27,065 nt of DNA. It comes from Deltaproteobacteria bacterium. GTDB taxonomy: Bacteria; Desulfobacterota; Desulfobacteria; Desulfobacterales; ETH-SRB1. The notes under the pieces were generated by a model. The model was given only the letters and a program-made list of their open reading frames with translations. It did not search any database and was not told the DNA's origin. Position numbers and translations under genes: made by a program. The stretch lies in contig JAFDFV010000001.1 in the NCBI GenBank assembly GCA_019309665.1, forward strand, positions 1 to 27,065, given 5' to 3'. This document shows positions 1,878 through 18,417 of this stretch, piece by piece; the first letter of the stretch is position 1; every line of letters begins with the position of its first letter.

Positions 1878-2221
1878 GTTACCACAGCCGTTTCATTCTC
1901 ACAGGAAATCCCTGCGCCATATTCACAACATCTGGAAAAGATGCACATAGAACAATCCACCCTTTGAATTATTACGCCCTCCAGCAGAAAACAACCCGAT
2001 AAAAAAGGTTCAAAACTATCAAATGCATGAAACAAGGCACAAGCGTTACAGTATTTTGTCAGTGATGAAAAATGCCTTATATACACATCTATCTGATTTG
2101 TAAGAGTATTTATATGCTTTTATGATGAGATGGGTCAATAATAGCGTTACACTATTTGGATCTTATTAAGCTTATAAACCATTGAGATCTCATCTGACCA
2201 AGTCGATGTACCGTATAGTAT

Positions 2222-2701
2222 TTAACATTCCTTAATGTCGTTTACTTTGCTCAAAAGACCCGAAAAACCTTGATGGGAGAATGTGTCCGCATAGGCATGG
2301 AGCACTATTCCGAATTTTACCAGATTGTCTTGCTCAAGGGATTCCGTCAAGATATCTTTGATAACCGGTGATTCTTCGGTACAGCGGAGTTTTTTTGCAA
2401 AGTTTTTTTCCTTGCAACCTGGAACGAAGTGAAAAGCACAGGTATTGTTTATCATGGCACTGTAATTGTAGGTCTTTGTCCTGGTATAGGAATGACACGT
2501 AGCCATGTTGAAAAATGAAGGTTGATTGTCAATCACATCGTGCTGAACATCCTGAGGAGGAAATCCCCGAATAACAATATGATTTATCTTGGCATCATCC
2601 ACGAACTGGGATGCATATGCTACCTTATGGGCACTTCCCTTACTAAAACCGCATGCTCCACAAAAAGCTAAGACCGCATAATAATGGGCATCCACTTTCA
2701 T
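2222..2701 (-). pseudogene. DUF6765-like protein (possible Zn-dependent phospholipase C/P1-nuclease fold), probably 3'-truncated
   Basis: Strong RBS (aggaggag). Motifs HYYAV..., AYASQFVDDA, FHFVPG and GIVLHAYADTFSHQGFSG. The ORF stops 9 codons after the last motif. Confidence 0.6.
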
Positions 2702-2818
2702 AGTGACTCCTCCTTTCTTGACATTGTGCTTCGTTAAGTTATTAAAGCCAAGATTTGATCATACATATAGATTTTCGGAAAAATAATTTAAGAGGTCATC
2801 CTTGCCGGCACAATACTT

Positions 2819-3681
2819 CTAAACAATCTGCGAAACCTCATCTATGGCTGCTGCATAAGCTGCTGCCAAGCCATCCAAATTTTCCTGAGCCCTCGCCAAA
2901 TCACTGTTATTGTCAATAAAAAATGGCTCAGCAATGAGACAAGGGGCTTTTGTATAGCGCAAAAGGTGGCCGCCTCTATCTTCAGCCGCCTTTGGCTTTG
3001 CTCCTCTGTTGGACAGTTTTAGATGTTCAACAAGATGATTGACAAGGATTTCGCCCATTTTCCTGCCCTTTTTAGATTTATGGTAATAAAGAACCTCAAC
3101 GCCTGAAGCTTTTCCATTAAAAGCATTGCAATGAAGGCTGATAACAAAATCGGGCTCAAGAGCATTTATGTCGTCTGGTAGCTCCTTATATGTCCTTCTG
3201 TAAATTCGCTGTATTCTGCATTTCGGATCTTCTTTTCAATGCGGATGGCCAAATCTTTGTTGAAATCGAACTCACTAAGGCCCGCCCTTTTGTTAAGCGC
3301 ACCAGGAGAGCTTTTCTTATGACCGATGACCAAGGCACAAAGCTTTTTCAGCGGAGCTATTTCCTGCTCACTTTCCAACTCAGACAGGCGCTCTTGAATT
3401 TCCGTTAAAGAAACGATGCCCTTTTCTGCAAGCTTTTGAATCAATGCGCCCGTTAAACGGGGCAGAGTTTCCACTACCTGTGCCGAATAGAGAATCTTGC
3501 CGGCAAGCTCCCCTTGGACCAGGGCTGTCTTGCTCAGATCTTCTTCGACCACAGGCAATGTTGCAGCCTCAGGCGGTTGTGGTGCCCCTTTGGCAAGTGT
3601 GGTAAGCAAAATCTTCCCAGATTCAGTCTTTAGATAACCATCCGGTCTAAGCGTTCCTATGAGCCAATCTTTTAACGCCAT
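2819..3681 (-). pseudogene. N-acetylmuramoyl-L-alanine amidase (Amidase_3) with an unknown N-terminal domain, split by a 1-nt frameshift at about 3214
   Basis: The upstream ORF carries LVIGH and SEFDFN. The shifted frame continues QRIYRRTYKELPDDINALEPDFVISLHCNAF...VEVLYY and joins ORF 2819-3058 (CLIAEPFFIDN). All Zn/catalytic residues (H, E, H, E) are present. Adding one base gives a single 287-aa ORF. Confidence 0.9.
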
Positions 3682-3699
3682 TTATTTCTCCCCTGGGAT

Positions 3700-3792
3700 T
3701 CATCCAATTGATTGTTGGGAACTCGTCCGCAAGGACTTAGGGTGAATATGGTAAAATGCTTCAGGATGGGCTATTCTCAATGGCCGTGCCAT
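3700..3792 (-). pseudogene. 5' stub of a REP-associated tyrosine transposase (RAYT/Y1_Tnp)
   Basis: RBS aaaggag then ATG 3792: MARPLRIAHPEAFYHI, matching the typical RAYT N-terminus MARPLRIEYPGAFYHI. Unrelated sequence follows, with a stop after 30 aa. Confidence 0.7.
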
Positions 3793-4053
3793 AATCGCTC
3801 CTTTATCATCAAACGATATTATGGCATTTGCACATCAAAAGAGCCTATCTGTCAAAAATGAAGGACTGCCCCCGGGGTCGGGGTTTTCCCGGCTATGCGA
3901 ATGCCAGGCGGGCTGAGCGAGGCGGGCGAGTATCAAGCCTGGAGTATAACCTCTCCTACGAATCAACTATTTGCCTCCCCCCCCATCAGACTTATTTAAC
4001 ATGGCCAATAATGTCTACAATATCCCCTGTAATCAATATATTAAAGCATTTAC

Positions 4054-4554
4054 CTATGGTAGATCTCGTATTTCTAATTCAATCTTTATGGATTCTTCTT
4101 TCTCGACGAGTTCATAGCGTTCGCCGAAAGTCTTAAATCCAGAAGCCGTCACTTGGACCTTAATTTTTCCACGGGGAATAACCCGCAAAACAGCAACACC
4201 TTTGCTGTTTGTTTTAGCTGAAAATTCTTGACCGTCGCCTGATTTCACAAAAACATTGGCACCTTGTATTAGGATAAGCTCTTCATCGCTGCCTTGCGCC
4301 TTGACAACCACTTCGATGGTTGTATTCCGCGCAGTTTCAGGGGCCGCGGTATCCTGTGTAACCGTCTCATTTGTTTCTTCCGTCGAGCTATGTTGATCGG
4401 CTATTGTGTCATTGGCGCTATGCTGGGATTGTTGGACAGTATGTTCTGTCTCATTGTCAATATTCGCGCTTTCTGCGCTATCGTACCCCGCCAGCCCAAT
4501 GGACATCAAAACCAAAATGATCATTAAAACCATATGAGTGAACATTTTCAGCAT
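4054..4554 (-). CDS. Exported protein with a C-terminal carboxypeptidase-regulatory-like (prealbumin-fold) domain
   Basis: Hydrophobic N-terminal signal, T/E/Q-rich linker, then IQGANVFV...KTNSKGVAVL...IPRGKIKVQVTASGFKT. Confidence 0.7.
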   Translation of the reverse strand: MLKMFTHMVLMIILVLMSIGLAGYDSAESANIDNETEHTVQQSQHSANDTIADQHSSTEETNETVTQDTAAPETARNTTIEVVVKAQGSDEELILIQGANVFVKSGDGQEFSAKTNSKGVAVLRVIPRGKIKVQVTASGFKTFGERYELVEKEESIKIELEIRDLP

Positions 4555-4618
4555 AAATAGTCCGGTTGTGACAAGATGGCCTTATATAAAAAGCACAGTA
4601 AACAGATTGAGTAGTTTT

Positions 4619-5548
4619 TCATTGTGGCTTGCTCAGCATTTTTCGTGTACGTACGAGTTCATGAACAACCTCGTCGTAATAGGGCTTTTCTTTAAGGCTG
4701 GCGCGTGAACCCGGAAAGTAAACCAGCGCTAATTCCGCACTTCCGGATTCCCAGCGTCTTAACACGATCGCGACGCGTTGTCCTTTTGAGAGGCGTGTGT
4801 TGTCTATTATAGGAAAATCGAAAAATCCGACACGAAAGGTAAAATCGGCTTCGACTTGGTCTTCCATCCAGATTTCTAATCTGACGCGTAGCTCTTTTTT
4901 GTTCTGGTCGTAGTCAAGCACCTCGACAATGAAAAGGCGGTTTGGTCCGCTGGAACCTATGTCCGCCGAAGGGAGCCGGAGTGTTTCCTCGAGTAGTTGG
5001 ATACCTTCAGGTTTGTTTTCCAAGTCTTCAAAGAACACAGTCATAGGCCGAACAACACCAACATCTTCTAATGCGCCAATTTGTTTGTCCGCTACCTCAC
5101 GGGCGACTTTTTCTAAACGTTTCTGTAAGATTTTACGCTCGTTTTCTGGATTGTTTTGGATATTTTCCTCCACATGTTTAAACAAAGGACCGAGATCGAT
5201 CACATCGTGGAAGTTATAAGCGATTAACTCCAAAGCTAGGACTTCCTTCCTGTTTTCCGGCTTGTTTTCCGATGACTTGGATTCCAGAAAGGCTTTTATA
5301 ATAGCATTAAACATCTCCTTTCGGAGGTCACTATCGGCTTTCTCCCGGTTGCTCATCAGTTCGGCATAAAGCCGAATGTTTGTTTCCGTTGCTTGTTGTC
5401 CCTCTAAGTATTGTGAGCCGAAGAACCCGACAAGGGCTATCGATACAGCCGCCAGCAATCCGCCTACAGGTCTGAGAACAACATCCCACTTGTCCCAGGC
5501 GTCCTTTTTCCTCTCCAGTTTCTTCCCATTGTCCTTTCCGTTCGCCAT
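4619..5548 (-). CDS. Hypothetical single-pass membrane protein
   Basis: 309-aa ORF with one N-terminal TM segment (VGGLLAAVSIALVGFFG) followed by a helical then beta-rich soluble region. It starts 2 bp after the upstream stop. Confidence 0.8.
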   Translation of the reverse strand: MANGKDNGKKLERKKDAWDKWDVVLRPVGGLLAAVSIALVGFFGSQYLEGQQATETNIRLYAELMSNREKADSDLRKEMFNAIIKAFLESKSSENKPENRKEVLALELIAYNFHDVIDLGPLFKHVEENIQNNPENERKILQKRLEKVAREVADKQIGALEDVGVVRPMTVFFEDLENKPEGIQLLEETLRLPSADIGSSGPNRLFIVEVLDYDQNKKELRVRLEIWMEDQVEADFTFRVGFFDFPIIDNTRLSKGQRVAIVLRRWESGSAELALVYFPGSRASLKEKPYYDEVVHELVRTRKMLSKPQ

Positions 5549-5550
5549 TG

Positions 5551-5877
5551 TTATCTCCTGCGCAGGACGTAATCGTCCCCCTGCCTGATCAACTCGAAGT
5601 CATAGCGGACTGGGTCCCGGTAGGAATTAATCGGATGTCTGGCTCCGGGAAAGCCAGGAAGCTCAAAAGAACAATTGCCTGTCTCGTTGACATAGATGCT
5701 GTAAGCGCCACGCTCGTTTGTTGTTCCAGGATAGGTTCTTTGAGCACAGGTAATCTGAATGGGTACCCCATGACCGATGGATCGGCCGTCTTGTCTCACA
5801 GTTCCATTTATTTTTCCTGCATAGGTTGCCGGCGGGAAAACCAAAATGGTTAACAGGACGAAAGTGCAAAGCTTCAT
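5551..5877 (-). CDS. Small secreted protein, prealbumin-like beta-sandwich
   Basis: RBS aaggagg before ATG 5877 (the longer start in the ORF track is unlikely). Signal peptide MKLCTFVLLTILVFPPATYA, then GKINGTV...TNERGAYSIYV; two Cys in the mature part; 108 aa. Confidence 0.75.
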   Translation of the reverse strand: MKLCTFVLLTILVFPPATYAGKINGTVRQDGRSIGHGVPIQITCAQRTYPGTTNERGAYSIYVNETGNCSFELPGFPGARHPINSYRDPVRYDFELIRQGDDYVLRRR

Positions 5878-5903
5878 CGCGTCCTCCTTGATGTTTATTT
5901 GAC

Positions 5904-6713
5904 TTATTTGGAAAGTACGCCAGTTATGGAGCCAATGAGAATAAAGATGCTCCATATAATAACAACGATCGCAATAATAATACCAATGATAGCATCGGCA
6001 ATACTGCAAAAGATTCCTGGCACAAATCCAAGACCAAACTCAATGATAAAAAAGGTCACAAATCCAGTGATCAGAAGAAGAGTTGCGCTCTTTATCCTGA
6101 TCATCTGACTTCCGCCAATCCAAAGAAGAACAGCAGCGACTATTTTGCACAATAGCCCAAGACCGCCTAAGATTAATACGGGACCTTTTGGGAAAGCTCC
6201 ATAGATAGCCGCGTAGATCAAAGGGCCAAAGGGCACTGCTAACAGAAGACCAATCATGATGATCAGTTTGAGAATCGCCTGCACAATCAGGAAGATTGAG
6301 ATAAATATGACGATAATAGAATTAATGAGACTGATAATCATTCCCACCCTGTGAACAGAGGCTTTAGTAATCAGCATGCCGATGAGGCTGATCAGGATGG
6401 AAAAGAAGACCACCCAAAGATAGAGCCCATCGGCTTCCAGACTGTAACCAGGTGGGGCAGGTTCTGATTCTGTAATTTTTTGCCTTGCCTCTTTTTTTGC
6501 GTCCAACCGATCAGGGTGATCTTTAGGTTTTCCTTCCTCATCCATTGTTTCATCAATACCATTATTGGCGTCTCTGATCATCTCCAGAGTGGTAGGAAGA
6601 AGCTTCTGAAAGAAGGGGAGATTGGGTCCTCCATACTCAATCCCAAATCCAATAAAGAGAAAGATAAGAGCTACGATAACAAAAGATTTCTTCAGGGGTT
6701 GTATAGTGCGCAT
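5904..6713 (-). CDS. Polytopic membrane protein (about 6-7 TM), probably eCIS-associated
   Basis: Long hydrophobic runs and motifs LLLAVPFG.LIY..IYG.FP.G and GFVPGIFCSIADAIIGII. Located just downstream of PAAR on the same strand. Confidence 0.8.
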   Translation of the reverse strand: MRTIQPLKKSFVIVALIFLFIGFGIEYGGPNLPFFQKLLPTTLEMIRDANNGIDETMDEEGKPKDHPDRLDAKKEARQKITESEPAPPGYSLEADGLYLWVVFFSILISLIGMLITKASVHRVGMIISLINSIIVIFISIFLIVQAILKLIIMIGLLLAVPFGPLIYAAIYGAFPKGPVLILGGLGLLCKIVAAVLLWIGGSQMIRIKSATLLLITGFVTFFIIEFGLGFVPGIFCSIADAIIGIIIAIVVIIWSIFILIGSITGVLSK

Positions 6714-6738
6714 TTTATATTAGCTCCAGTTTTAAGGA

Positions 6739-6772
6739 ATTTGTTGACGTGGCGCATGCCACGCCAACAAAT
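6739..6772. other. 15-bp-stem hairpin in the intergenic region
   Basis: atttgttgacgtggc-gcat-gccacgccaacaaat; one mismatch in the stem. Confidence 0.8.
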
Positions 6773-6810
6773 CGTTAAGCTCCGCCGTTGGGCAACGTAG
6801 AGTTGTCCCT

Positions 6811-6990
6811 CTAATCTGTTCTTCCTCCAGTAACAAGGGAAAGGATGAGGAAAACGATACCAAAGAGTAAAAATCCTCCTCCACCAATACTAAGGAAAAC
6901 TATTCCCTTAATTAAACCAATCACCAGTAACACGGCCCCTAACACTATAGAAGCAATCCACGCTAATCTTCCACGAATAATTAACCCCAT
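6811..6990 (-). CDS. Small two-TM membrane protein (59 aa, below the ORF-track cutoff)
   Basis: Strong RBS gaggaggtg before ATG 6990. MGLIIRGRLAWIASIVLGAVLLVIGLIKGIVFLSIGGGGFLLFGIVFLILSLVTGGRTD*. Confidence 0.85.
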   Translation of the reverse strand: MGLIIRGRLAWIASIVLGAVLLVIGLIKGIVFLSIGGGGFLLFGIVFLILSLVTGGRTD

Positions 6991-7018
6991 AATAATATCA
7001 CCTCCTCTCTTGATAAAC

Positions 7019-7318
7019 TTAATCCCCTATCAGTACAGTGGGTTCACCTTCAGCTACAGGGTCAGGACCACCAGTAGCTTCTTTCACAATATCACCAATC
7101 CTGGTTGCAGGAAATTCATTAATAAAAACAGCGTTGCTTCCACCATCGACTACACCACCTCCATGGGGATTAGGTGTAGCCAGTGGACAGATATGGAAAT
7201 CCTTCTTAGCCCGCCAGGCCGGCTTTTCCCCGATAAAAACATCCGGGCTTCCTGGACCGGGCTGCAAAGGACCACCATGTGCTGTCATATCACCTAAGCG
7301 TGCTGCCGGTTTTCTCAT
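7019..7318 (-). CDS. PAAR spike-tip protein (Afp10-like)
   Basis: PAARLGD.T.HGG, PAWR, HICP...PHGGG, PATRIGD motifs; 99 aa with no toxin extension. Confidence 0.95.
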   Translation of the reverse strand: MRKPAARLGDMTAHGGPLQPGPGSPDVFIGEKPAWRAKKDFHICPLATPNPHGGGVVDGGSNAVFINEFPATRIGDIVKEATGGPDPVAEGEPTVLIGD

Positions 7319-7399
7319 CTCTTCCTTTGAAATTCCATTACTGCTTCTTCATCTATTTGCTTTTTAATTACTTTAAGACGTAAAACCTCACGTAGAATC

Positions 7400-8134
7400 T
7401 CACGGTATCTTACGTGGAACCTCAAGTACCTTACGTTGTGGAACCTCAAGTTCAAGTGCCTTACGTGGAAACCCACCAGGTCGTATTCCAGGTGAAACCT
7501 TAACCGTAACGTTTCTTGTAACTTTTTTACCTTCTTTGTTCCTTGCCATTAATGTATAGGTAGTGGTTTTGTGAGGGCGAACTTCATTTCTACCGGACGG
7601 TCTGAACCTTTTTCCTAAAGGCTCAATTATAACTTCCACAGCATTTTTGGTTTTCCAGGTTAAATTTGATCGTTCGCCTTTTTTTATAGTGGAAGGGGCG
7701 GCTTTAAAAGAAACAATTTCAGGCGGCAGGATTTCAACCTTTTGCCCATTCCCAAAAAACTTTGGAATCACAAAGACTCCTACTAATACCAGGGCCAACA
7801 CAACGACACCAATGCCGGCGCCAATGAGTATTTTGGGCAAGATGGAAGATTTGGGTGTTGAGACAGTCTCTACGGCATCTTCTTCCATAGCAATTTCTAC
7901 GGGAATAATTTGTTCTTCAATTCTACGAGTAAGTGTTTTGGTCTTAAACCCCTCTTTTTTAGCAGTACAGGTCAGGGTTTCTCCTATATAGTCGGTAGAC
8001 TCTTCATGTGCAAAATAACCCTTTCCATCCGAATACAGACTTGCCATTTCAGTAGTTCCAACACTTAGGATAATCTTCGCTTCACCTAAAGGTTCTTTAG
8101 TTCTGGCGCTTATTGCAGTTCCTGTTATCTTCAT
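7400..8134 (-). CDS. Bitopic membrane protein: N-terminal prealbumin-like domain, TM helix, C-terminal Ig/PKD-like domain
   Basis: No signal peptide; ITGTAISARTKEPLGEAKI; TM ILIGAGIGVVVLALVLVGVFVI; PEIVSFKAAPSTIKKGERSNLTWKTKNA...TTYTLMA. Confidence 0.8.
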   Translation of the reverse strand: MKITGTAISARTKEPLGEAKIILSVGTTEMASLYSDGKGYFAHEESTDYIGETLTCTAKKEGFKTKTLTRRIEEQIIPVEIAMEEDAVETVSTPKSSILPKILIGAGIGVVVLALVLVGVFVIPKFFGNGQKVEILPPEIVSFKAAPSTIKKGERSNLTWKTKNAVEVIIEPLGKRFRPSGRNEVRPHKTTTYTLMARNKEGKKVTRNVTVKVSPGIRPGGFPRKALELEVPQRKVLEVPRKIP

Positions 8135-8166
8135 CTTTCCATTCCTCCTTAGAATTGATTTTCGTA

Positions 8167-9021
8167 TTATTCCTCAAGAATATATACCTTATACGAAACC
8201 TTGGCAGCCACATTAGAAAAGTTTTTAAAAAACAGTCGATATTTAACCTGATTGTCAGAAAAACTACTTTCTATTCTCCAACTTATTGCAGTATCCTGCG
8301 TGACTGGATAGGCGCTCACCAAATAATATCTATGAGCATTCTCTATGGGCAGACTCTCTAAAAAGACAGAGGTATCTTCATGGCCTGGTGTCTTCTCCTT
8401 GCTCTTAGCTACCCTTATTTCACCTTCGCGCTTAACTTTTCCCAAGTCTCTCAATCTTGTTGGTCCTTTAACTACTCCAGCCTCTCTTATATTCATTAAG
8501 TCTATCTCGTTTCTCTTTGGATTGAATGAATCTTCAGCATCCTTGATCTCTTTAACTCCTTTGGCCAATTCGATACGAGCTAATTCCAGAATGAGGAAGT
8601 TGTCTGGCTCCTGAGTACTTACTTCTACCTTAGGCCCCTCTTCGACAAAGGCATATCCGGTAAGGGTTGGATTGGCTACATTTTCTCTTTTATCTATTTT
8701 TTGTTCATCGTAGCTAATGGTAATATACACAGTCTGCGGAAGTGTGTAGTCACTAATTCTTATATCTAATTGCTTAGGTTCAGCCAGGAAGAGATCACGT
8801 CCTTCTCCATCAATGGCATAGCCGGGGGCTATATAAAGAGAGAATCTGCCTGCCGGGGTAACCTTTAATTCGCCGGAGTAATTGGGTACTACTCCAGGTA
8901 TATGCAGTGACTTATTGTGGAGTCTCCGCTTTTCTATATGATATTTCTGACCTGCATTCCAATCATCTGCTTTAGTGAAGAATCCTTCAAAAAAACTGAT
9001 CCTTTTAAATATTTCCATCAT
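8167..9021 (-). CDS. eCIS baseplate-peripheral / tail-fibre-base protein
   Basis: RBS aaggag before ATG 9021. N-terminal KRISFFEGFF...DWNAGQKYHIEKRRLHNKSLH.PGVV and IAPGYAIDGEGRDL, the pattern seen at the N-terminus of CIS fibre-attachment proteins. Confidence 0.65.
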   Translation of the reverse strand: MMEIFKRISFFEGFFTKADDWNAGQKYHIEKRRLHNKSLHIPGVVPNYSGELKVTPAGRFSLYIAPGYAIDGEGRDLFLAEPKQLDIRISDYTLPQTVYITISYDEQKIDKRENVANPTLTGYAFVEEGPKVEVSTQEPDNFLILELARIELAKGVKEIKDAEDSFNPKRNEIDLMNIREAGVVKGPTRLRDLGKVKREGEIRVAKSKEKTPGHEDTSVFLESLPIENAHRYYLVSAYPVTQDTAISWRIESSFSDNQVKYRLFFKNFSNVAAKVSYKVYILEE

Positions 9022-9038
9022 TATTATCTCCTTTCTGT

Positions 9039-9926
9039 TCAACCTATATAACAATCCCATCCTATGGTTGAGTGAAATTCAATTTGCATAGGAAAGAGCT
9101 TAGGCCTTTCCTCATCAGGTGTATTAATCTTAAAGTAACAACTTGTGTGGGCCGGCTTCTGGGCATCTATTAATGAGCGAATTTTTTTAATGAGATTATT
9201 TCTTCGTTCTTTTTCTATCTTTCTCTTTTTAATTGAAGTGTATTCAAAAACAGGGTCCCATTCAGGGTCCCACTCTACTATAAAAGAATGAGCGGTATCT
9301 ATCTGCTCCATAATATTTGTATCAATCCCTACGCTTGAGTGTATACCAATTATGAAGCCGGCCGGCCAATTCCATTCCTTGATCTTTACCTCTACCTCGC
9401 CGAACCAGTCCAAAAAGTACTTCAAGCCTTTAGCAGTACCTCGCCATTTATAAAGCTCTGTTGCAATTTTGATAAGGTTCCTCTTCTTCTCTTTGCTCCA
9501 ACTCTCATCCAGAACTAAATCCACCCAGGAGGCTAACCAGGGCAAAAAATCTAAAGGCGCCCGATCAAGATCAAAATAAGTATAGATTTGATCTATTTTG
9601 ACCTCAAGACCTGAGAATATATGCTGAAAAATTTGCAAGAAGTCTTTTAATAAGTTTCCACCACTTATATCTTCCTGGTGATAGATAGCAGGCAGGTACT
9701 GTAAATAACTCCTGCGTGCTACAGTCAGGTCCACCGCCTGTCCCTGATTGAGTAGAAAGCCCGGTTTCGGCTTTTGAGTTAGGACCACCCCTTCCTCTTT
9801 CTCATTGTCCTCATGATATGTAACCTGTCCAAGCGTCAGCCCTGATTGAAAAAGTCTTTCTCCGGCTTCTGAGAGTAATAAATCTATAAGTCCGGGCGTC
9901 CCAATCTGTAACAAAGTTGTTGACAT
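9039..9926 (-). CDS. P2 gpI-like baseplate wedge protein (TIGR02242-type) with an N-terminal PASTA domain
   Basis: YLQYLPAIY, FLPWLASWV and LYKWRGTAKGL, plus C-terminal IDAQKPAHT. Residues 11-70 fit the PASTA pattern. Confidence 0.88.
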   Translation of the reverse strand: MSTTLLQIGTPGLIDLLLSEAGERLFQSGLTLGQVTYHEDNEKEEGVVLTQKPKPGFLLNQGQAVDLTVARRSYLQYLPAIYHQEDISGGNLLKDFLQIFQHIFSGLEVKIDQIYTYFDLDRAPLDFLPWLASWVDLVLDESWSKEKKRNLIKIATELYKWRGTAKGLKYFLDWFGEVEVKIKEWNWPAGFIIGIHSSVGIDTNIMEQIDTAHSFIVEWDPEWDPVFEYTSIKKRKIEKERRNNLIKKIRSLIDAQKPAHTSCYFKINTPDEERPKLFPMQIEFHSTIGWDCYIG

Positions 9927-9935
9927 AAAATTTTC

Positions 9936-12812
9936 CTAACCCGAGATGATATTTATAATGATCTCACCAGGATAGACTAAGGAATTATCCGGTACAGCCA
10001 CTTTCTGGAATCGTGGATTGTCATTTAAGACCAGGTTGGCAACATAGTTTATTCCTTCGATACCCTCAAGAGTTTGGTATATCTCAGAGATATATACATC
10101 TCTGCCAAATTCCCAACCTTCTTGTCTCGGGCCTCCTCTAAGAGGATGAAGAAAACCTCTTAACTCTTCCTCCATCTTCTTTTTCAGTTTGGATGAATGT
10201 TCCGGTATCCCGATGGCTACATCAATTTTTATTGAAATCTTAGTATAACTCGGTTTAACTATCTTAAGTTTAGTGGTGATCAGGCGCCGCTGCTCCAGAT
10301 AATCTCTTACCTTCCCCAATAGTTCAGTACTTGGAGATGGTCTGTCTTCTTTACTTTCAGGAACTATAATAACTGTAACTTCTCCGGGTTTTTCCTCAGT
10401 TGGCAAACATCTTGCTCTAGCTACATTGTTGGAAGCCTCTTTAGTTAATGCCTCAAAGTCATCTTTTGTCACTGCCCGATACCGATGTTTAAGGGTGCTT
10501 GGACCCCGTAATCTTGCTTGTTTCACTGTTTCCTGACCAGCTCCACCACCAGCGGATTCTAAGTTGGTAATAGATTCAATATATGGAATAGAACCCCTGA
10601 GCACAGTAATTGTTCCTGCCCCCACATTACCTATTGCTCCACCACCAACCCTGTACGTACTACATTTTATGTTATTTCTATCTATTGGAGGAATCTTGCC
10701 ATGTCTGCTATCTCCAAAATACACCTTGCCAGCCTGGCAGTCTAAGATATAGTGCCGGCCATCTTCTTTTGATTCGAAGAAGTTAGCTACCTGGCGCCAT
10801 CTTGTCCAAATAGCTTTTCCGGTTGGAGTCTCTTTCTCTTTGACTAAAATTTCTAAATTCGGAAGGATGGGAGCTTGCGAAAAACTAAATATCTGGTTTG
10901 GGTTGCCGTTACTTGAGCCTAAGATTTCATTTTTAAAAGATTTAGCCTGAATCACACTGACGGAGTTAAGATTAATTCCTCGCAACTTAGGTAAATATCC
11001 GTATCTGCAGATCTCCCATCTAGCTCTAATCCAATAAGCCTTAGTGTCAAAGACTTCAGTCCCACTAAAATCAGATGGACCTATAAATGCAATATCGCCG
11101 GCCCGGGTAAAATTTTTGGTGTTATCTTCAATCATCTTCAAGTTTACCCATTTTTTCTTTTCTTTAGACCAATATTCCCAGACTACTACCTGTTGTTCAG
11201 CCTCGGATTTTTTTCTTTGTCGATTTCCTTCATCTGGCGCTTCTTCAGCTACCCAAAAGTAAACTCGATGGAGTTTGTTGCTGAATCGTCGATCAAATCC
11301 CAAATAAAAGGCCGGCGATAACTCCGGATGAATCTTAAAAGGCTGAAAAGAAGTAATTTTTTTCTCGCGCATCTCCTTGTTAATATCCCTAAAGATAAAA
11401 TCATTATAAGCTAAACAATGCTGAGGAGTCATTAACTCTTGACTAAACTTGAGAAAAACAGTCTTGATGGATGGTGGTCTAATGGTTGTAGTTTTCGTGC
11501 CATAATCACCGGCTATGATTCTGGCTCGAATCCAGTGGTTTTTTTCTTCCCCTATCTCTGCAGGGCTAATATCAGGAGGACAGTTAAAAGATATGGAACC
11601 TGTTTTGGTAAAAGCATCAGTTTCATCCATAAAAGCAAATTTACCCAACTCAACACCGACAGGTGTAGTTATACCCAAAATTTTCCACTCTCTATTTTGC
11701 GCCCAATATTCCCAGGCCAATTTTAATTCTTTTAGAGATTCAAAGGGTAAGGGGATATAAAAGTCCGACATTGTTACCTCTAAGGAGATACGAGCATTTT
11801 TTCTTGACAAAACCTCTTGGCTTGCAAGGTAGAAAGCAGTATTTAGCCTGGGCAATTTATCCAAAGGATAAAAATTTCTATTAAAATCAATAGGTAAATA
11901 CTGTGTCTCCTCAACATTTGTGTAGCCGCGCTCCGGCTTTAGTCCCCTGCTTTCTTTAAGTTCCGCAGTTCCTTTGATAGCAACCATATAGGGTAATGCC
12001 CGCCCTCTTTCTACCTTGACCAACCGACAACGAAGCCAGAAACTTTCAATTTCATTGACCTTTGTTTTTTCTATTCCTAATATTTCATCAAAAGTCACAT
12101 AACCACTGTTAGTCAAATTTTTTGTCTCATCAGATAAAGGAATCGTACTCTCCCACCCGGCACCATTCCAGAATTCCCAATCTAAATCTATTCTCTCGGC
12201 AGTATGTTCTGCTAAGAGTTGAAAATAAATTTTAAGCGCCATATCTCCACTCAAAGACAGGAGTTCATTATCGCCAAGATAGAGAATACGCTCTATTTCC
12301 GTATCACTATGAAAGATATAATATGGTTCCTTTGCTAAGGATTCACTTAAAACGCTTTCAGTATGATCCGAAAATCCATAAGGGTCTTTAGAGCAGCATT
12401 TTATTATCTTGATAGAAGTCAGATTAACTTCATGCTCGGTCTCAAATACAATTGCCTCAGCGTTTTTAGTCTGAGCAGTAGCCAACTCTATACCCTTATC
12501 TCCCGGAATTAAATCTTCTTCCCTTGCCCCTTCAACAATTTTAAAGGTAACAACTCCCCTGGCAGGTTGGGCAGGAAGTAGATTTATCCCTATAAGATTC
12601 AGGAATTCTATGTAATTTTTATCAGGAACACGATTGAGTCGGTAGATAATCAGTTCTGTCATCCAGGCAAAAAGTTCAATCAACGTAATGCCTGGATCAC
12701 CGGGATTATAATTTGTCCATTTGGGACAATATCTAGGAATAAGTTTTATTGCCTCATTAACTATATCCTGAAAGGTGCGATCATCTAAATTTGGCGCTTG
12801 TAATTTCGACAC
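9936..12812 (-). CDS. Baseplate J-like protein (Afp11 / TIGR02243-type), 958 aa
   Basis: PNLDDRTFQDIV, WTNYNPGDPGITLIELFAW, LGSSNGNPNQ, YRVGGG.IGNV, RAVTKDDFE and FLHPLRGG motifs. GTG start overlaps the gp25 stop. Confidence 0.95.
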   Translation of the reverse strand: MSKLQAPNLDDRTFQDIVNEAIKLIPRYCPKWTNYNPGDPGITLIELFAWMTELIIYRLNRVPDKNYIEFLNLIGINLLPAQPARGVVTFKIVEGAREEDLIPGDKGIELATAQTKNAEAIVFETEHEVNLTSIKIIKCCSKDPYGFSDHTESVLSESLAKEPYYIFHSDTEIERILYLGDNELLSLSGDMALKIYFQLLAEHTAERIDLDWEFWNGAGWESTIPLSDETKNLTNSGYVTFDEILGIEKTKVNEIESFWLRCRLVKVERGRALPYMVAIKGTAELKESRGLKPERGYTNVEETQYLPIDFNRNFYPLDKLPRLNTAFYLASQEVLSRKNARISLEVTMSDFYIPLPFESLKELKLAWEYWAQNREWKILGITTPVGVELGKFAFMDETDAFTKTGSISFNCPPDISPAEIGEEKNHWIRARIIAGDYGTKTTTIRPPSIKTVFLKFSQELMTPQHCLAYNDFIFRDINKEMREKKITSFQPFKIHPELSPAFYLGFDRRFSNKLHRVYFWVAEEAPDEGNRQRKKSEAEQQVVVWEYWSKEKKKWVNLKMIEDNTKNFTRAGDIAFIGPSDFSGTEVFDTKAYWIRARWEICRYGYLPKLRGINLNSVSVIQAKSFKNEILGSSNGNPNQIFSFSQAPILPNLEILVKEKETPTGKAIWTRWRQVANFFESKEDGRHYILDCQAGKVYFGDSRHGKIPPIDRNNIKCSTYRVGGGAIGNVGAGTITVLRGSIPYIESITNLESAGGGAGQETVKQARLRGPSTLKHRYRAVTKDDFEALTKEASNNVARARCLPTEEKPGEVTVIIVPESKEDRPSPSTELLGKVRDYLEQRRLITTKLKIVKPSYTKISIKIDVAIGIPEHSSKLKKKMEEELRGFLHPLRGGPRQEGWEFGRDVYISEIYQTLEGIEGINYVANLVLNDNPRFQKVAVPDNSLVYPGEIIINIISG

Positions 12813-13213
12813 TATAACTCTCCTTTTTCGTGTAAATAAAAGGGATAAACCAGGTTAAATATGTTATTGGTGCGAATGACTTTATAGTCTATGTTTATAA
12901 GTAACTTGCCAATATCAACCTCATCTTTGGATACATCTACTTTCAGTAGTTCCAGTCTCGGCTCAAACAATATCAAAGCCTCTCTAATATGATGTATGAT
13001 CAACCCCTCAGTGGAAGTATTGACGGGCGCAAATACTAACTTATGGATTCCGCACCCAAAGTCGGGACGCATTAACCTCTCGCCTTTTGAAGTCCCTAAG
13101 ATGATTCGGATGGACTCTTTGATATCCTCCTCGTGGCAGGAGAGAGCAATTCCGCCACTAAGATTGGTTTGAAATGGAAATTTTATACCAACGCCCAAGA
13201 ATTCCTTACTCAT
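12812..13213 (-). CDS. GPW/gp25 baseplate protein (Afp9-like)
   Basis: FLGVGIKFP, IKESIRIILGT.KGERLMRPDFGCG, FEPRL and NLVYPFYL motifs. Confidence 0.95.
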   Translation of the reverse strand: MSKEFLGVGIKFPFQTNLSGGIALSCHEEDIKESIRIILGTSKGERLMRPDFGCGIHKLVFAPVNTSTEGLIIHHIREALILFEPRLELLKVDVSKDEVDIGKLLINIDYKVIRTNNIFNLVYPFYLHEKGEL

Positions 13214-13243
13214 TAGTCTTCTCCGACAAAATATTGAGAAATA

Positions 13244-14104
13244 TCAATTAATATGAACCGTATTACCTTTGATAACCATGGTGCCTTTGGCTTCCATGTT
13301 GATAGAAGCTTTAGAAATAGCCTGGATTTCTTTTGCCGAAAGGGTTATTTTACCCTTTGGCGCCTCTAATTTGATATTTCCGTTCACACTGGTTATTGTT
13401 ATTTCATGTGCTCCATAAGCTATATCTATTGTATTTTCCAGGGCAAAATCCGTAATTATTATAGACTTTGACTCATCGTCCAAGACCATCATCTGCCCAT
13501 CTGTAGTGCAGAATTGTATGCGATGGATCTCATCATTTAAAAATAGTTGATTACCTTTTTTGGTGTTTATTGATATTTCCTTCTTTGCATCGTCTAAGAT
13601 CGCCCGGTGTCCGCCTCTTGTCGTTATAAGTATCTGACCGGCGCCATCATCCAGGGTTATCTCATAGCCTTTGTTCGTTTTTATAATTATTTTCTCTTTT
13701 TTCTCTTCGTTATTATCATCAAAGACGATAACATGACCGCTCCGGGATTTTATGGCGCGGATGTTATTCTTTCCGTCAGCGTTATTAAAAGGCGGTTTTT
13801 GCTTCAATGTCCAAAGCGCTCCGAGCACAAAAGGATAATTGATATCACCATGTTCAAAGGCCACCAAAACATGGTCGCCTACTTCGGGCAGAAAAAAAGT
13901 CCCTCTATCCGGACCGGCCATAAGGGTAGCTATGCGCGCCCAGTAACTTTCATCATTCTCTTGCAACCATGGGAATTTTACCTTAACTCTTCCCAGATTT
14001 TCAGGGTCTTTGTTATTAGTCACAACCCCGACTACAACACCATATAGCTTGGCAGCCTTGTCTTCATCCGCAACAGTATCTGAAAGAGCGTCTCGTAAAC
14101 TCAT
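13244..14104 (-). CDS. Spike protein (gp5/GpV OB-fold plus beta-helix; C-terminal half of a split VgrG)
   Basis: GVVVGVVTNNKDPENLGRVKVKFPWL, WARIA and PEVGDHVLVAFEHGD, followed by repeated G..I..DD beta-strand units. Confidence 0.93.
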   Translation of the reverse strand: MSLRDALSDTVADEDKAAKLYGVVVGVVTNNKDPENLGRVKVKFPWLQENDESYWARIATLMAGPDRGTFFLPEVGDHVLVAFEHGDINYPFVLGALWTLKQKPPFNNADGKNNIRAIKSRSGHVIVFDDNNEEKKEKIIIKTNKGYEITLDDGAGQILITTRGGHRAILDDAKKEISINTKKGNQLFLNDEIHRIQFCTTDGQMMVLDDESKSIIITDFALENTIDIAYGAHEITITSVNGNIKLEAPKGKITLSAKEIQAISKASINMEAKGTMVIKGNTVHIN

Positions 14105-15183
14105 GCGGCATTCCTTTTCACTTCAAATTTAGTCAAATAACCGGTATCATTTATTGTATGTTTCGAGGATGTAATATAATATAGTCCGCTGAACCGTTTT
14201 CCCATGCCTTTTAATTCTATTATTTTACCCGTTCTCACCTCTGGTGTGCCAATGCAAGTTCCACTACCGGTGATATAATCCATAGTTGTTTTATTATACT
14301 TTGCCTTAGCCATTTCTTCAGCCTCATGTTGTGAGCGCACAGGTCTATCTACTATGGCAAATTCGGCATCCGAGTCATAAGCGTCTTCCACAGCTTGAGC
14401 GCCTGTTCTTTTGCCTCCCATCTTAGTGATTTCATCACCATTTTTGGCTATACCAATGAGCTCCTTTTCTTGTAAATTATAGCCCTTAACTATAACCTTG
14501 CTCAGTTGATTGAAGGTATTAAGCCTTGGCGAAAAAGACCTCAAGGTTTTACCCCACTCTAAGACATATAGTTTTCTTTGGCCACTTCCACTCTTCTTAA
14601 AATGAAGAGTCCTATCTGTTACCCATACTTCATAATTAATACTTGCAGCTCTATGTTTCAGGAAATGTATATTATTCTGATTGTTTTGATATACATATGA
14701 GTATCTTTCATCAGTATGATCTACATCAGGGGTCAAATTCATTTCTCTAGCTATCTGAGCGGCAATTTGACTATCACTCATGTCTAAAAAAGGTCGCCTC
14801 CTTCTCTCTCTCCTCAGACGATGATAACGGTTTTGTCCTCTTACAGTCAAAGTAGCGATTCCATCCTGAGAAAATACAGGTTCAAGAGCAGTTATCTCGC
14901 CAACTACCATGGTATGCAAATCATTAGAATAACCTATTTTTATCTCGACTCCACCACCTTCATCAAAAAGTTCAGAATCAATCCTGGTCAATTTATTGCT
15001 ATGAAAGTATTCAGGCTTTTCGTGCCTAACCCATAAGGTGAAGGAGAATATATCCGCAGCATTCAGTTTGTCTTCATAAGTCACATTGATAATATCCTTA
15101 GCTATATCATACTCTAATTTTTTACCGTCAATGCTTATATTGAACAGAGGAACATAATAATCTTTTCTGACTTCATCGGGCAT
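14101..15183 (-). CDS. Late control D / gp27-like hub (N-terminal half of a split VgrG)
   Basis: IEIKIGY, GEITALEP, YQNNQNNIHFL and GMGKRFSGLYYITSSKH motifs. ATG 15183 is preferred over TTG 15204. The stop overlaps the spike ATG (ATGA). Confidence 0.9.
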   Translation of the reverse strand: MPDEVRKDYYVPLFNISIDGKKLEYDIAKDIINVTYEDKLNAADIFSFTLWVRHEKPEYFHSNKLTRIDSELFDEGGGVEIKIGYSNDLHTMVVGEITALEPVFSQDGIATLTVRGQNRYHRLRRERRRRPFLDMSDSQIAAQIAREMNLTPDVDHTDERYSYVYQNNQNNIHFLKHRAASINYEVWVTDRTLHFKKSGSGQRKLYVLEWGKTLRSFSPRLNTFNQLSKVIVKGYNLQEKELIGIAKNGDEITKMGGKRTGAQAVEDAYDSDAEFAIVDRPVRSQHEAEEMAKAKYNKTTMDYITGSGTCIGTPEVRTGKIIELKGMGKRFSGLYYITSSKHTINDTGYLTKFEVKRNAA

Positions 15184-15218
15184 AATTGATATGACCCCCT
15201 CCAAAGCATTCTGTTTGA

Positions 15219-15839
15219 TTATGAAAGGCCTGGAATAGTCAGGACCTGACCTGATTTCAGTATTATGGGATTATCAATACCATTGAAATCCGCTATTAGA
15301 CGCCACTTTCCCGGATCTTTATACTCTTCGCCGGCAATCCCACTTAACGTATCGCCCTCTTTCACGACCCGATAAGTCGTATAATCAGAGGCGTGCAAGG
15401 GGCTGCGCCGTGTTTCAATCTCCGGAGCATTATATTCTTTGAAAATAACGCTTAAAGTTGTACGGACCGGTATTCCACTCTCTAAAAACATGGTGAATCT
15501 CTGACTAACATTTTCAAGGACACAAGTGAATTGCACCTTGCTCCAGCTAAAAAGGCAGACAGGGGGAGCATGGGTAGAAGGTTCAATATCCAATAGACCT
15601 ACTATCTTGTTAGTATACTCGCGAACATCGGTTCTTTTTTCATACGTATCAAAGAAAAGTTCCGTGGAAAGTCTTTTAATATCTCCTCTGACAAATTGCA
15701 AAAAAGGAGAGCCTGTTCCCGGAATTCCGACTTCAGCGAAGCGATTACTCTTTTCAAAAGTATATTCTGCAGGATTGAAGAGTACCTCTATCTTATCTCC
15801 CGTAACGGTATTGACAATAAATGCTTTTTCTAATCCCAT
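15219..15839 (-). CDS. CIS tube-initiator protein with C-terminal LysM (Afp7-like)
   Basis: VLFNPAEY, ELFFDTYE, HAPPVCLFSW and FTMFLESGIPVR motifs; LysM VVKEGDTLSGIA...WRLIADFNGIDNP. Confidence 0.93.
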   Translation of the reverse strand: MGLEKAFIVNTVTGDKIEVLFNPAEYTFEKSNRFAEVGIPGTGSPFLQFVRGDIKRLSTELFFDTYEKRTDVREYTNKIVGLLDIEPSTHAPPVCLFSWSKVQFTCVLENVSQRFTMFLESGIPVRTTLSVIFKEYNAPEIETRRSPLHASDYTTYRVVKEGDTLSGIAGEEYKDPGKWRLIADFNGIDNPIILKSGQVLTIPGLS

Positions 15840-15847
15840 TATACTCC

Positions 15848-16936
15848 TTATTCTCTTTCCTTTTCTATTCTGAGACGATTTTCTATTATATCATAGACCC
15901 TGTCGGCTATAAGCTCATAATCTACTAAATGTTGAGCCGGATCGGTTAAGCCGGAGGGCTCAAAACCGATTGGATAACTCTTGACATCCTTTCTTGAGTT
16001 TGTATTTTCTTTGACTCTCATAACTTTCAATGACCGACTTGAATTATGATGCCTATCAAGGAAAATAAGCTGCGAGGAAAAGGAAGCATGTTCATCACTC
16101 AAAGCATCTTTTTTCATCCTGGTATGTTGAGTATCAATCATAGGGATAAACTTATGCGTCCGCAGGGAAGACCTTCCGAGGTGAAGGATTGGTTGCGCCT
16201 CTCTATCGCCATTGATAACCGTATTGTCAGAGAAAAACATTGGTTTTCTACTTTGTGGTTTTAATAATGAGAAAAATATATCGGTTGCGACAGGAAAAGG
16301 TTGTGGAGTTACGGTATCGGCCACCTTGCTCTCCTGAAGTGCAGGAAAGGGCATATGATCAAGAAGAGCAAGCCTTTTGGGTGTAGTCAGGTCGAATTTG
16401 CCGCTGCCAAAAAAAATTTCTTTTCTTGTAGTAAAGATTTCAGATTTTGCCGTTTTTACTGCTGAAAAAGTTTCTGAATTTGAATCTAAATGTATACGAT
16501 CTTGCTTAAACTTAAATCCTTTATAAAATAATGATTCCATAAATGCAGGAATATACTTGTGTTTGTATATGGGCAAGAAGCTTTTAATTAAGTTTGCTGA
16601 TCCACCAGAAATTGCTTTTCTTTTTGTTTCAAAAAGTAATCCTTTTACTTGACCTTCAACAGATGGACATGCGGAGGGCTTTTCTTCACTATTTAGACCT
16701 TTCTCCATAGATAAGGTATTAATCAAAGGTTGAATAAGATAGGTCATCTCAACTTCCGGCAGATTCAACATTTCGGCCCCGGGAGATCTGAACATCCTTA
16801 GGCCAAAATAGGACTCCAGAAAACCAAGTGGATTGGCTCCTAAAGGCCTAAGATAGTTCTTTAGAATATCTTTGTGAAAATTTATTAATCTCTTGTTCAG
16901 CCTCCCGATACAAGAGAGATATCCTTCATTAAGCAT
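15848..16936 (-). CDS. Hypothetical eCIS protein with a degenerate DUF4157-like segment and a conserved-looking C-terminal helix
   Basis: ATG 16936 lies 1 nt after the tube-2 stop. Internal AFMESLF...RIHLDS...FTTRKEIFFGSGKFD...LALLDH; C-terminal ELIADRVYDIIENRLRIEKERE. Confidence 0.6.
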   Translation of the reverse strand: MLNEGYLSCIGRLNKRLINFHKDILKNYLRPLGANPLGFLESYFGLRMFRSPGAEMLNLPEVEMTYLIQPLINTLSMEKGLNSEEKPSACPSVEGQVKGLLFETKRKAISGGSANLIKSFLPIYKHKYIPAFMESLFYKGFKFKQDRIHLDSNSETFSAVKTAKSEIFTTRKEIFFGSGKFDLTTPKRLALLDHMPFPALQESKVADTVTPQPFPVATDIFFSLLKPQSRKPMFFSDNTVINGDREAQPILHLGRSSLRTHKFIPMIDTQHTRMKKDALSDEHASFSSQLIFLDRHHNSSRSLKVMRVKENTNSRKDVKSYPIGFEPSGLTDPAQHLVDYELIADRVYDIIENRLRIEKERE

Positions 16937-16937
16937 T

Positions 16938-17372
16938 TTAAAGCCTTTCGATTCCTTCATGGGCAATCTCTAGAACTTCGATAGCCACCTCATTGCCATT
17001 GGCCTTAAAATTTGGCCCTTTCCATTTGCAAGGCCAACCATCTTTGAAATTCCATCGCGCATTTTCCTCTCCAGTCTCATTAAGAAGTATAATGGAGCCG
17101 GATCTGCGCTCAACCTTTCCTGCGACAGCCTTATTTTGCCACTGCCACAGTTCAACTGAATCAGTGACCCCTCGTTTGAGAATGATATTGGAGTATTTTG
17201 TTTGGGTTGGTAATTTATGGATATAGGCATTCACTCCTCCTTCCTTGTATTCAAAGACCTCTGTTTCTATGTCCAGACCACTTACTTCAGAAAATCCGGC
17301 TTCTATCATTCCATTGATCTCTACCAGGAAGTTAAAGTTTACATAAGGATCACGCCTTTTCCCAGGCACCAT
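16938..17372 (-). CDS. Tail tube protein 2 (T4 gp19-like, Afp1/5)
   Basis: DPYVNFNFLVEI, GFSEVSGL, NIILKRGVT, WPCKWKGP and IEVLEIAHEG motifs; RBS before ATG 17372. Confidence 0.95.
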   Translation of the reverse strand: MVPGKRRDPYVNFNFLVEINGMIEAGFSEVSGLDIETEVFEYKEGGVNAYIHKLPTQTKYSNIILKRGVTDSVELWQWQNKAVAGKVERRSGSIILLNETGEENARWNFKDGWPCKWKGPNFKANGNEVAIEVLEIAHEGIERL

Positions 17373-17392
17373 TTCCTTGCTCCTTAGCAATT

Positions 17393-17563
17393 TCAGTTTT
17401 TAATTGAGGCATTTATCTTCTTATTAATCTTAGATATCTCCTCTACCCACCTGCACCTTTCTTGATGAGGCAAGTCCATTATCTCCTCATTTCCCCAGTG
17501 AAAATGATAGGCAATAAAGGCTATCTCCTCGTAGAGCCGGTCGAGGGGATAGCCAACTATTCC
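17393..17563 (-). CDS. DUF6760-like ORF without a start codon; probable -1 frameshift extension of the tail assembly chaperone (lambda gpT analogue)
   Basis: The -1 frame reads GIVGYPLDRLYEEIAFIAYHFHWGNEEIMDLPHQERCRWVEEISKINKKINASIKN*. There is no ATG/GTG/TTG between the upstream in-frame TAA and the conserved motif. Not in the ORF track. Confidence 0.8.
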   Translation of the reverse strand, partial: GIVGYPLDRLYEEIAFIAYHFHWGNEEIMDLPHQERCRWVEEISKINKKINASIKN

Positions 17564-17584
17564 CCCTGGTTCAAACTGACCTCC
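17519..17584 (-). promoter_or_regulatory. Putative programmed -1 ribosomal frameshift signal
   Basis: Minus strand: SD-like GGAGGT (17584-17579), 12-nt spacer, slippery GGGGGAA (17566-17560), 5-nt spacer, then stem-loop GGCTATC-C-CCTCG-N10-CGAGG-A-GATAGCC (17554-17519). Confidence 0.75.
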
Positions 17585-17919
17585 ACTTGACCGTTACAAT
17601 GGGGACACTTTGTTGTGAGGGTTAATGATCCCCCTCCGTTTATTCTCCGGTAGAACTCCTGAAGATATGTCAGATCTTCCACAAAGAGTCCCTCAATAAT
17701 CCTTGGATTAATATCCTCTATGGTTCCAAGTTTGGTAATCACCCTTGAAAGGAGAATAATTGTCAAATAGGCTGGGTTGTTCTGAACACGAGGATCTTTC
17801 AGGGGCAAAATCTCATCAGCCGCATTAGCCAGACGCAGAATACCCTCTTTGTAAAGATTGCCTTCCTTATCAACATAACCTTTTGGCAGAACAAACTCAT
17901 ATTCTGTCTGGATAACCAT
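17557..17919 (-). CDS. Tail assembly chaperone (lambda gpG analogue)
   Basis: TEYEFVLPKGYVD.EG.L...G.LRLA.AADEI.PL.DPRV..NPAYL..ILLSRVI motif, C-terminal CPHC; directly follows tube 1. Confidence 0.88.
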   Translation of the reverse strand: MVIQTEYEFVLPKGYVDKEGNLYKEGILRLANAADEILPLKDPRVQNNPAYLTIILLSRVITKLGTIEDINPRIIEGLFVEDLTYLQEFYRRINGGGSLTLTTKCPHCNGQVEVSLNQGE

Positions 17920-17937
17920 ATTACCTCCGGTTTACTT

Positions 17938-18381: not shown

Positions 18382-18417
18382 AATCAACCTCCCTATTTAA
18401 TAATTTAAACATTAATT

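Follow-up and report, generated by a model that had tools for sequence, protein, structure and literature searches.

In the cytoplasmic contractile injection system (CIS) of Streptomyces coelicolor, the baseplate wedge consists of Cis11 in two copies and Cis12 in a single one (PDB 9GTP; Casu et al., eLife 2025, PMC12237407). [quoted passage not shown] In AlgoCIS, N-terminal regions assemble into a core bundle with gp25 on top, and movement of the fibres is proposed to pass via this bundle to gp25 and the sheath (PMC8894135); the diffocin paper describes the same bundle of N-terminal regions, again topped by gp25, and proposes the same relay. In tCIS, Cis7 carries a LysM domain whose binding partners are Cis9 and Cis12 (PMC8894136). 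Here, a baseplate wedge protein that carries a PASTA domain fused to its N-terminus is identified in a 27,065-nucleotide stretch of DNA (hereafter the window; contig JAFDFV010000001.1, NCBI GenBank assembly GCA_019309665.1) from a Deltaproteobacteria bacterium assigned to ETH-SRB1 within the Desulfobacterales.

Residues 11-70 of this protein are a genuine PASTA domain, both by score and by fold. They match positions 4-63 of the 64 in the Pfam PASTA profile (PF03793) with 27.8 bits (E = 2.4e-6), above the curated gathering cut-off of 23.2 bits; residues 1-80 scored alone reach 31.5 bits, and a scan of the source genome with the PASTA family gives the protein 31 bits (E = 7.4e-7). The NCBIfam model PknB_PASTA_kin matches residues 8-72. 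When residues 1-75 were compared with 1.84 billion representative proteins by phmmer, 3814 proteins were returned at E<=0.001; the best of these are tandem or multi-PASTA proteins aligned over residues ~8-71 of the query, and multi-repeat PASTA proteins dominate the top 150 matches. The AlphaFold2 (AF2) model has a predicted local distance difference test score (pLDDT) of 85-91 across residues 10-70 and the layout beta-alpha-beta-beta-beta. Foldseek superposes it on the PrkC PASTA of Staphylococcus aureus (3py9) with a root-mean-square deviation (rmsd) of 1.2 A over 63 columns and matches it to the single-domain PASTA entries 3ouv, 2mgv and 5nod (from PknB, PonA2 and StkP) with TM-by-target values of 0.71-0.80; the rmsd to solved examples ranges from 1.2 to 2.9 A. 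Because 75 of 76 homologues from other genomes match the PASTA model independently (best 5.6e-12), the assignment lies far beyond chance.

The context of the domain is unusual, since it is single and N-terminal and comes without an export signal: the protein has no kinase or penicillin-binding protein (PBP) domain, no transmembrane (TM) segment and no signal peptide. The source genome encodes only one other PASTA protein, of 306 residues (contig C146, 1-921, reverse strand), in which a hydrophobic segment at the N-terminus precedes three tandem PASTA domains; it lacks kinase and PBP domains and is encoded directly downstream of an rsmB-like methyltransferase gene. No phage family in PHROGs matches the PASTA part, and an ESM Atlas search with that part, in which kinase and PBP families were skipped, returned stand-alone PASTA clusters only, at lead-level scores. 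In BFVD, several proteins of uncultured tailed phages, 146-760 residues long (among them A0A6J5NY54, A0A6J5KNS9 and A0A6J5NDH4), have PASTA_pknB-type domains, which can be superposed on the domain described here at 1.6-2.4 A.

Behind the PASTA domain lies a small wedge subunit of the Tail_P2_I type. TIGR02242 matches residues 75-184 with 97.3 bits (cut-off 51.85) and Tail_P2_I (PF09684) matches residues 113-207 with 60.6 bits (cut-off 20.6). The closest solved relative by phmmer is chain E of the S. coelicolor baseplate (9gtp_E, 2.3e-6), followed by PA0619 of pyocin R2, and Foldseek aligns the C-terminal two thirds with 9gtp_A (6.2e-6), diffocin 8v3w_4, phiCD508, pyocin 6u5b_0, TssG 6n38_G and gp48 of Mu (9ki1); TM scores for the wedge core are low (0.2-0.37) because the domain orientation in the model is uncertain. 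The CIS12 equivalog NF053768, of the Afp12/Pvc12/Alg12 type, reaches 91 bits against a cut-off of 860 and matches only at positions 468-569 of 715; the protein is therefore a small Tail_P2_I-type wedge subunit and not an Afp12-type Cis12. The TssG hidden Markov models (HMMs) also stay below their cut-offs (PF06996, 14.6 against 24.6 bits; TIGR03347, 12.7 against 143 bits). The protein is thus a TssG/gpI/gp7-type subunit of a CIS baseplate wedge, probably single-copy, that works like TssG, gpI and Streptomyces Cis12 yet, judged by sequence, lies outside the TssG families. By analogy with 9GTP, pyocin R2 and T6SS, we infer one copy for every two copies of Baseplate_J in each wedge.

The two parts are joined directly. 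The wedge core starts with the conserved segment YLxYLPxIY, the proline of which (P79) is invariant, and L67, in the last PASTA strand, is separated from P79 by the same spacing of 13 residues in all 76 homologues, so there is no flexible linker between PASTA and core. In the open reading frame (ORF) at 9039..9926 on the reverse strand, the ATG lies at 9926, 9 nucleotides past the Baseplate_J stop and with AGGA in front of it, the codon of residue 11 begins at 9896 and that of residue 70 finishes at 9717. An earlier note on this DNA had placed a PASTA domain at exactly these residues and coordinates, directly before a gpI-like domain and at the N-terminus of a baseplate wedge protein. Its coordinates proved exact, the TIGR02242 and Tail_P2_I matches fall where it expected the gpI-like part, and HMMs, phmmer and Foldseek agree on a gpI/TssG-type wedge protein. 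The note had named the lack of a PASTA HMM or structural match as grounds for giving up the idea; both kinds of match were found, in PF03793 and in 3py9.

At first the fusion seemed rare. A contig scan of genomes with the single wedge protein as query gave no match, and a single-sequence search returned about 18 PASTA+Tail_P2_I clusters; this impression was overturned by a profile search and a scan of one genome per species. The profile, built from the first matches, retrieved 1178 proteins at E<=1e-5, and both Pfam domains are present in almost every one of the top 120. The species-genome scan gave 465 loci, and almost all of the best 80 align from residue 1-11 of the query. These best 80 are overwhelmingly from metagenome-assembled genomes (MAGs) of Myxococcota (Polyangia, Kofleriaceae, Nannocystaceae, Bradymonadia, Anaeromyxobacter). 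They supplied the 76 homologues used here for domain and conservation analysis, and neighbour counts given below refer to the 80 loci. Tail_P2_I is matched by all 76 homologues, and the copy number of PASTA is always exactly one. In a FastTree phylogeny of 213 sequences, built from the wedge core with the PASTA columns removed, all PASTA-bearing proteins fall into one clade of 94 tips (support 0.977), with none outside it; the subclade of the window, with 13 tips, is sister to the other 81, and the nearest PASTA-less sister group has 8 residues ahead of the core. The fusion arose once, and the clade, with at least 94 members sampled, has kept it throughout, always with one copy of PASTA. The survey of PASTA+TIGR02242 architectures that the earlier note had proposed thus yields hundreds of PASTA+Tail_P2_I proteins by profile search as well as this clade.

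Searches of 50,697 phage records (tblastn) and of IMG/VR found the wedge core only, never the fusion. In databases, fusion proteins go under the name 'phage tail protein I' and once 'PASTA domain-containing protein', and ESM Atlas holds clusters automatically named 'PASTA/Phage tail protein (Tail_P2_I) domain-containing protein'. A full-text literature search on PASTA together with contractile injection systems, baseplates, extracellular CIS (eCIS), tailocins, TssG or Tail_P2_I found no paper mentioning the fusion, and PMC12923769 does not mention PASTA. The earlier remark that no characterised CIS is known to have this fusion therefore stands as far as the literature goes, but this locus is one of many: the fusion characterises a large, mostly Myxococcota clade and is already labelled automatically in databases. 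What is new here is a second, divergent branch of that clade, in a Desulfobacterales-like sediment lineage, in which the TssK-like head has been lost and membrane proteins have joined the operon. A separate ESM Atlas cluster of 293 residues from Acidobacteriota bears the label T6SS_TssG in 96% of its members and PASTA in 31% (score 0.81, a lead only); PASTA on TssG-like proteins of Acidobacteriota is a possible second or wider occurrence.

Across the 76 homologues, mean pairwise identity is 39% in the PASTA domain against 43-49% in the other parts of the protein. The conserved PASTA positions are mainly those of the canonical fold core (P11, A21, G29, V48, Q51, P53, G56), together with a clade-specific, non-canonical patch of E39 (95%), Y41 (86%), R71 and S73; in the subclade of the window, D replaces the usually conserved G15 and N replaces Y41. 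The companions of the gene are constant as well. Cis11 adjoins the PASTA-wedge gene in 79 of the 80 loci, at a near-uniform length of 991-1038 residues, gp25 is conserved in 70, and in 73 a TssK-like homologue of ~520 residues lies downstream, with a C-terminal head that is conserved across the clade (52% identity). Covariation of PASTA with the expansion of Cis11 was considered and is weakened by a Cis11 of 1501 residues in the PASTA-less sister group. The bitopic protein, the downstream PAAR, the membrane proteins and the amidase of the window were rejected as PASTA partners, none being conserved in the 80 loci. In a Bradymonadales MAG (L100:6345-12532), a block of a 63-residue ORF, gp25, Cis11, PASTA-wedge and TssK-like genes has ribonucleotide reductase and rubrerythrin upstream instead of sheath and tube genes, so in some genomes the machine genes are split between loci.

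Other relatives of the wedge protein have N-terminal regions of 170-640 residues that hold FHA (P0049), an NHL-repeat propeller (P0122) or ~500 residues of unnamed sequence, and others carry GH42-like or NHL parts at the C-terminal side. FHA is fused to the wedge protein in P0049 and in the AFDB entries A0A2E0L127 and A0A136LCY0. At another locus (P0362; ENA ERZ25039489), three FHA-domain proteins and an AAA ATPase are encoded directly downstream of a 444-residue PASTA-wedge gene. Because relatives carry large modules there, the N-terminus of the wedge protein should be an accessible platform and not an enclosed one.

In the window, the PASTA-wedge gene belongs to a reverse-strand operon with a full contractile-injection set (Table 1): a Pvc16-like cap, sheath, two tube paralogues, a DUF4157-like protein, Cis7, hub and spike encoded by split gpD-like and gpV-like genes, gp25, Cis11, the PASTA-wedge, a 297-residue protein, a bitopic membrane protein and PAAR. 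The wedge gene sits after the Baseplate_J/TssF-like gene and before the TssK-like gene, which it overlaps by 22 nucleotides, and this order of TssF-like, TssG-like and TssK-like genes marks the wedge as T6SS-like. An eCIS 'Tail_P2_I baseplate type' with eBAP3/5 fibres has been described and agrees with this layout (PMC12923769). The Cis11 of the window contains an internally duplicated insert of ~300 residues, residues ~4-280 and ~438-610 both aligning to ~104-276 of a 653-residue relative. The 297-residue TssK-like protein is modelled by AF2 with a shoulder fold over residues 30-190 (pLDDT >90), to which a helical neck is added, and Foldseek matches the shoulder to TssK (6n38_E, 3.7e-5; 5mwn; 5y0e); the protein is without the C-terminal head present in the ~520-residue relatives. 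The whole CIS island spans ~2200-21400 of the window. Among 301 genomes of the window's own class the PASTA-wedge occurs in the source genome only, and neither five congeneric species nor 11 genomes from the same family (completeness 90-100%, in one case 85%) yielded a wedge homologue. The island is therefore accessory in this lineage and, on this distribution, looks horizontally acquired.

Table 1. Features of the injection-system locus, with positions in the window
Feature	Position	Strand	Evidence
PASTA + Tail_P2_I/TIGR02242 wedge protein, 295 residues, TssG/gpI/gp7-like, 'Cis12' of the Tail_P2_I baseplate type	9039..9926	-	HMMs, phmmer, Foldseek
Wedge-protein residues 11-70, a single PASTA domain	9717..9896	-	PF03793, AF2, Foldseek
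Fixed junction from PASTA to wedge core, residues 71-79, RRSYLQYLP	9690..9716	-	L67-P79 spacing
Cis11/Baseplate_J/TssF-like wedge partner, 958 residues	9936..12812	-	TIGR02243 374 bits + Baseplate_J
gp25/TssE-like sheath initiator (Cis9), expected beside the wedge stem	12812..13213	-	GPW_gp25 90 bits
Cis7 tube initiator with LysM	15219..15839	-	CIS_tube 102.7 bits + LysM 30.9 bits
TssK-like (Cis13/eBAP3-like) shoulder protein, 297 residues	8167..9060	-	NCBIfam CIS13_fam at the N-terminus, 9.6e-8; AF2 + Foldseek
Bitopic membrane protein	7400-8134	-	Segment 131-216 matches PHROG 2155 'virion structural protein', 5e-12; weak CarboxypepD_reg + Ig

By analogy with the solved wedges, the sheath-proximal stem tip is the most likely site of the PASTA domain, which would be held there rigidly, outside the junction between baseplate and sheath. 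As to its role, a built-in structural or docking module that acts by protein contacts is slightly favoured, if tentatively. PASTA may then brace or align the stem, gp25, the expanded Cis11 or a neighbouring wedge, or alternatively offer a docking surface to a partner. This would be a co-option of the same kind as that of the LysM of Cis7/gp53, serving as glue for baseplate proteins with no wall bound, and the LysM on this cluster's own Cis7 is a local example of a wall-binding fold in a baseplate. Rigidly coupled as PASTA would be to the core bundle that relays the firing signal, any molecule bound to it could, as a matter of speculation, influence firing. The comparison of homologous sequences indicates that PASTA probably behaves as a core part and not as an arms-race receptor binder: it is present in one copy, is never lost, has a rigid junction and near-core conservation, and keeps constant company with Cis11 and the TssK-like protein. 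Several points weigh against a structural or docking module. The placement at the stem tip is made by analogy, and the 121 N-terminal residues of E. coli TssG were not modelled (PMC6300606); no contact partner of the predicted docking module has been identified; and the expansion of Cis11 is not specific to PASTA, because the nearest PASTA-less sisters also have a very large Cis11. Furthermore, much of the PASTA surface varies around the small conserved patch of E39, Y41, R71 and S73, a pattern that suits a site for a small ligand no less than an interface between proteins, and the ligand-binding or enzyme-like modules (NHL, GH42-like) on the same subunit suggest that it is used for recognition.

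A small-ligand site would suit a released particle whose six PASTA domains per baseplate bind stem peptides, muropeptides or lipid-II-like glycopeptides on Gram-positive or damaged prey, or on wall debris, and so provide secondary adhesion or orientation or help to trigger contraction; this comes second in likelihood, possible although doubtful. By score and fold the domain is a true PASTA, with those of kinases as its nearest matches. Some of the PASTA domains in PknB, in PrkC and in PBPs are binders of muropeptides or lipid II, and beta-lactams are a further ligand of some family members; several others, however, bind nothing or bind proteins, as in PonA2 and in StkP PASTA4 with LytB, and binding has no general sequence signature. 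A conserved ligand would explain a domain that is conserved and never lost, and the E39/Y41/R71 patch, small, outside the fold core and set in an otherwise variable surface, is consistent with it. Most hosts are Myxococcota and Bradymonadia, known as bacterial predators; in diderm targets, however, the wall lies beneath the outer membrane. Glycan-binding modules occur on other wedge and fibre parts of CIS, as NHL and GH42-like parts in relatives and as carbohydrate-binding modules on Alg11 (PMC8894135). A single PASTA per chain on a rigid junction without linker nevertheless argues against such a binder, as does its predicted site at the sheath-proximal end of the stem: with the wedge N-terminus sheath-proximal and not target-facing, by analogy with T6SS, direct contact with a target wall is less obvious. 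The TssK-like 'fibre' head is conserved and not hypervariable, and its absence from the lineage of the window argues against a classical free target-hunting particle there. That PASTA is an evolutionary passenger, captured once and persisting without a function of its own because its removal destabilises the N-terminus, is very unlikely. Relatives of ~190 residues and the sister group do work without an N-terminal domain, but PASTA is retained in all 94 clade members, down to about 28-30% identity, and is conserved nearly as well as the core behind an invariant junction, which is not the pattern of a neutral appendage.

The ligand could also be met inside the producer. If the machine stays in the cell, as in T6SS or Streptomyces, a cytoplasmic PASTA might bind a membrane partner or wall precursors, such as UDP-MurNAc-pentapeptide or, at the inner leaflet, lipid I/II, docking the baseplate at sites of wall synthesis or coupling firing to envelope stress. 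Signal peptide and TM segment are both absent from the wedge protein, and the cytoplasm is where CIS are assembled, but no PASTA domain is known to function there; this arrangement is improbable. Its T6SS-like wedge (TssF2-TssG-TssK) and the conservation of the TssK-like head across the clade are in keeping with T6SS, in which the membrane complex is the docking site of both TssG and the TssK head (PMC6300606), and the Streptomyces CIS fires on stress from nisin, a lipid-II binder, and requires the membrane protein CisA (PMC12237407). The operon of the window adds the bitopic and further membrane proteins; conservation of these does not extend to the 80 related loci, the window is devoid of kinase and membrane-complex genes, and the Myxococcota versions retain the ~520-residue fibre-like protein, which is compatible with released particles. 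FHA is fused at the same N-terminus in relatives, and FHA proteins lie beside one PASTA-type locus. PASTA might even be the input of the firing switch: fixed rigidly to the core bundle that relays the contraction signal, it would bind a peptidoglycan-type molecule, either of the exposed prey wall or, as lipid II or another wall precursor, at the producer membrane under envelope stress, and this would tilt the stem and release gp25 and the sheath; this, too, is unlikely.

The contraction trigger of phage-tail-like injection systems and the positioning of their cell-bound versions are still largely open. Known ligands of the PASTA family are few (muropeptides and lipid II), and here one such domain is set at a fixed geometry on the subunit whose helix bundle is proposed to pass the firing signal to the sheath, in a fusion that predatory and sediment bacteria have kept in an entire clade of machines. 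The locus thus offers a cheaply testable hypothesis, that PASTA binds wall material and that such binding alters firing. If PASTA does act as the firing-switch input, a defined trigger, small molecule or wall, would for the first time in a CIS be sensed directly by a wedge subunit of the baseplate, and the FHA-fused wedges would be a parallel, phospho-dependent version. Were it structural only, it would be the second example, after LysM, of a wall-binding fold recycled as baseplate glue. Whatever its role, the PASTA fusion is a useful marker for its CIS lineage, and, of use in engineering, modules can evidently be added to the Tail_P2_I wedge subunit at its N-terminus.

Among known systems, Streptomyces Cis12 (9GTP) is the best match in sequence and fold for residues ~75-270, and both are small wedge subunits of the Tail_P2_I type; the two systems are also alike in their split VgrG-type hub genes and single sheath. 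Streptomyces Cis12, however, has 190 residues, ~20 of them before the core, and no PASTA, whereas the protein of the window has 295; the Streptomyces CIS is without a fibre or TssK-like gene (PMC12237407), and the system described here has a TssK-like gene. TssG (6N38/6GIY), P2 gpI, PA0619 of pyocin R2, Mu gp48 and the core of T4 gp7 share the fold class of the wedge protein, and T6SS and P2-type systems have the same gene order of TssF-like, TssG-like and TssK-like or fibre. In TssG, P2, pyocin, Mu and T4, N-terminal helices form the stem or core bundle, and none of these proteins is described as carrying PASTA, unlike the protein of the window. [quoted passage not shown] FHA- and NHL-fused Tail_P2_I wedge proteins use the same subunit as a platform for accessory modules, although their modules differ from PASTA. 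The PASTA domains of PknB, PrkC and StkP and of PBP2x, PBP1 and PonA2 belong to the same Pfam family and have the same fold, but they are extracytoplasmic, usually tandem, and lie behind a TM helix on a kinase or transpeptidase, whereas the domain described here is single, without an export signal, and borne by a machine assembled in the cytoplasm. The LysM of Cis7, Afp7 and T4 gp53 is, like this PASTA, a peptidoglycan-binding fold family in a CIS baseplate; it has another fold, resides on another subunit and is universal among CIS, whereas PASTA is limited to one clade.

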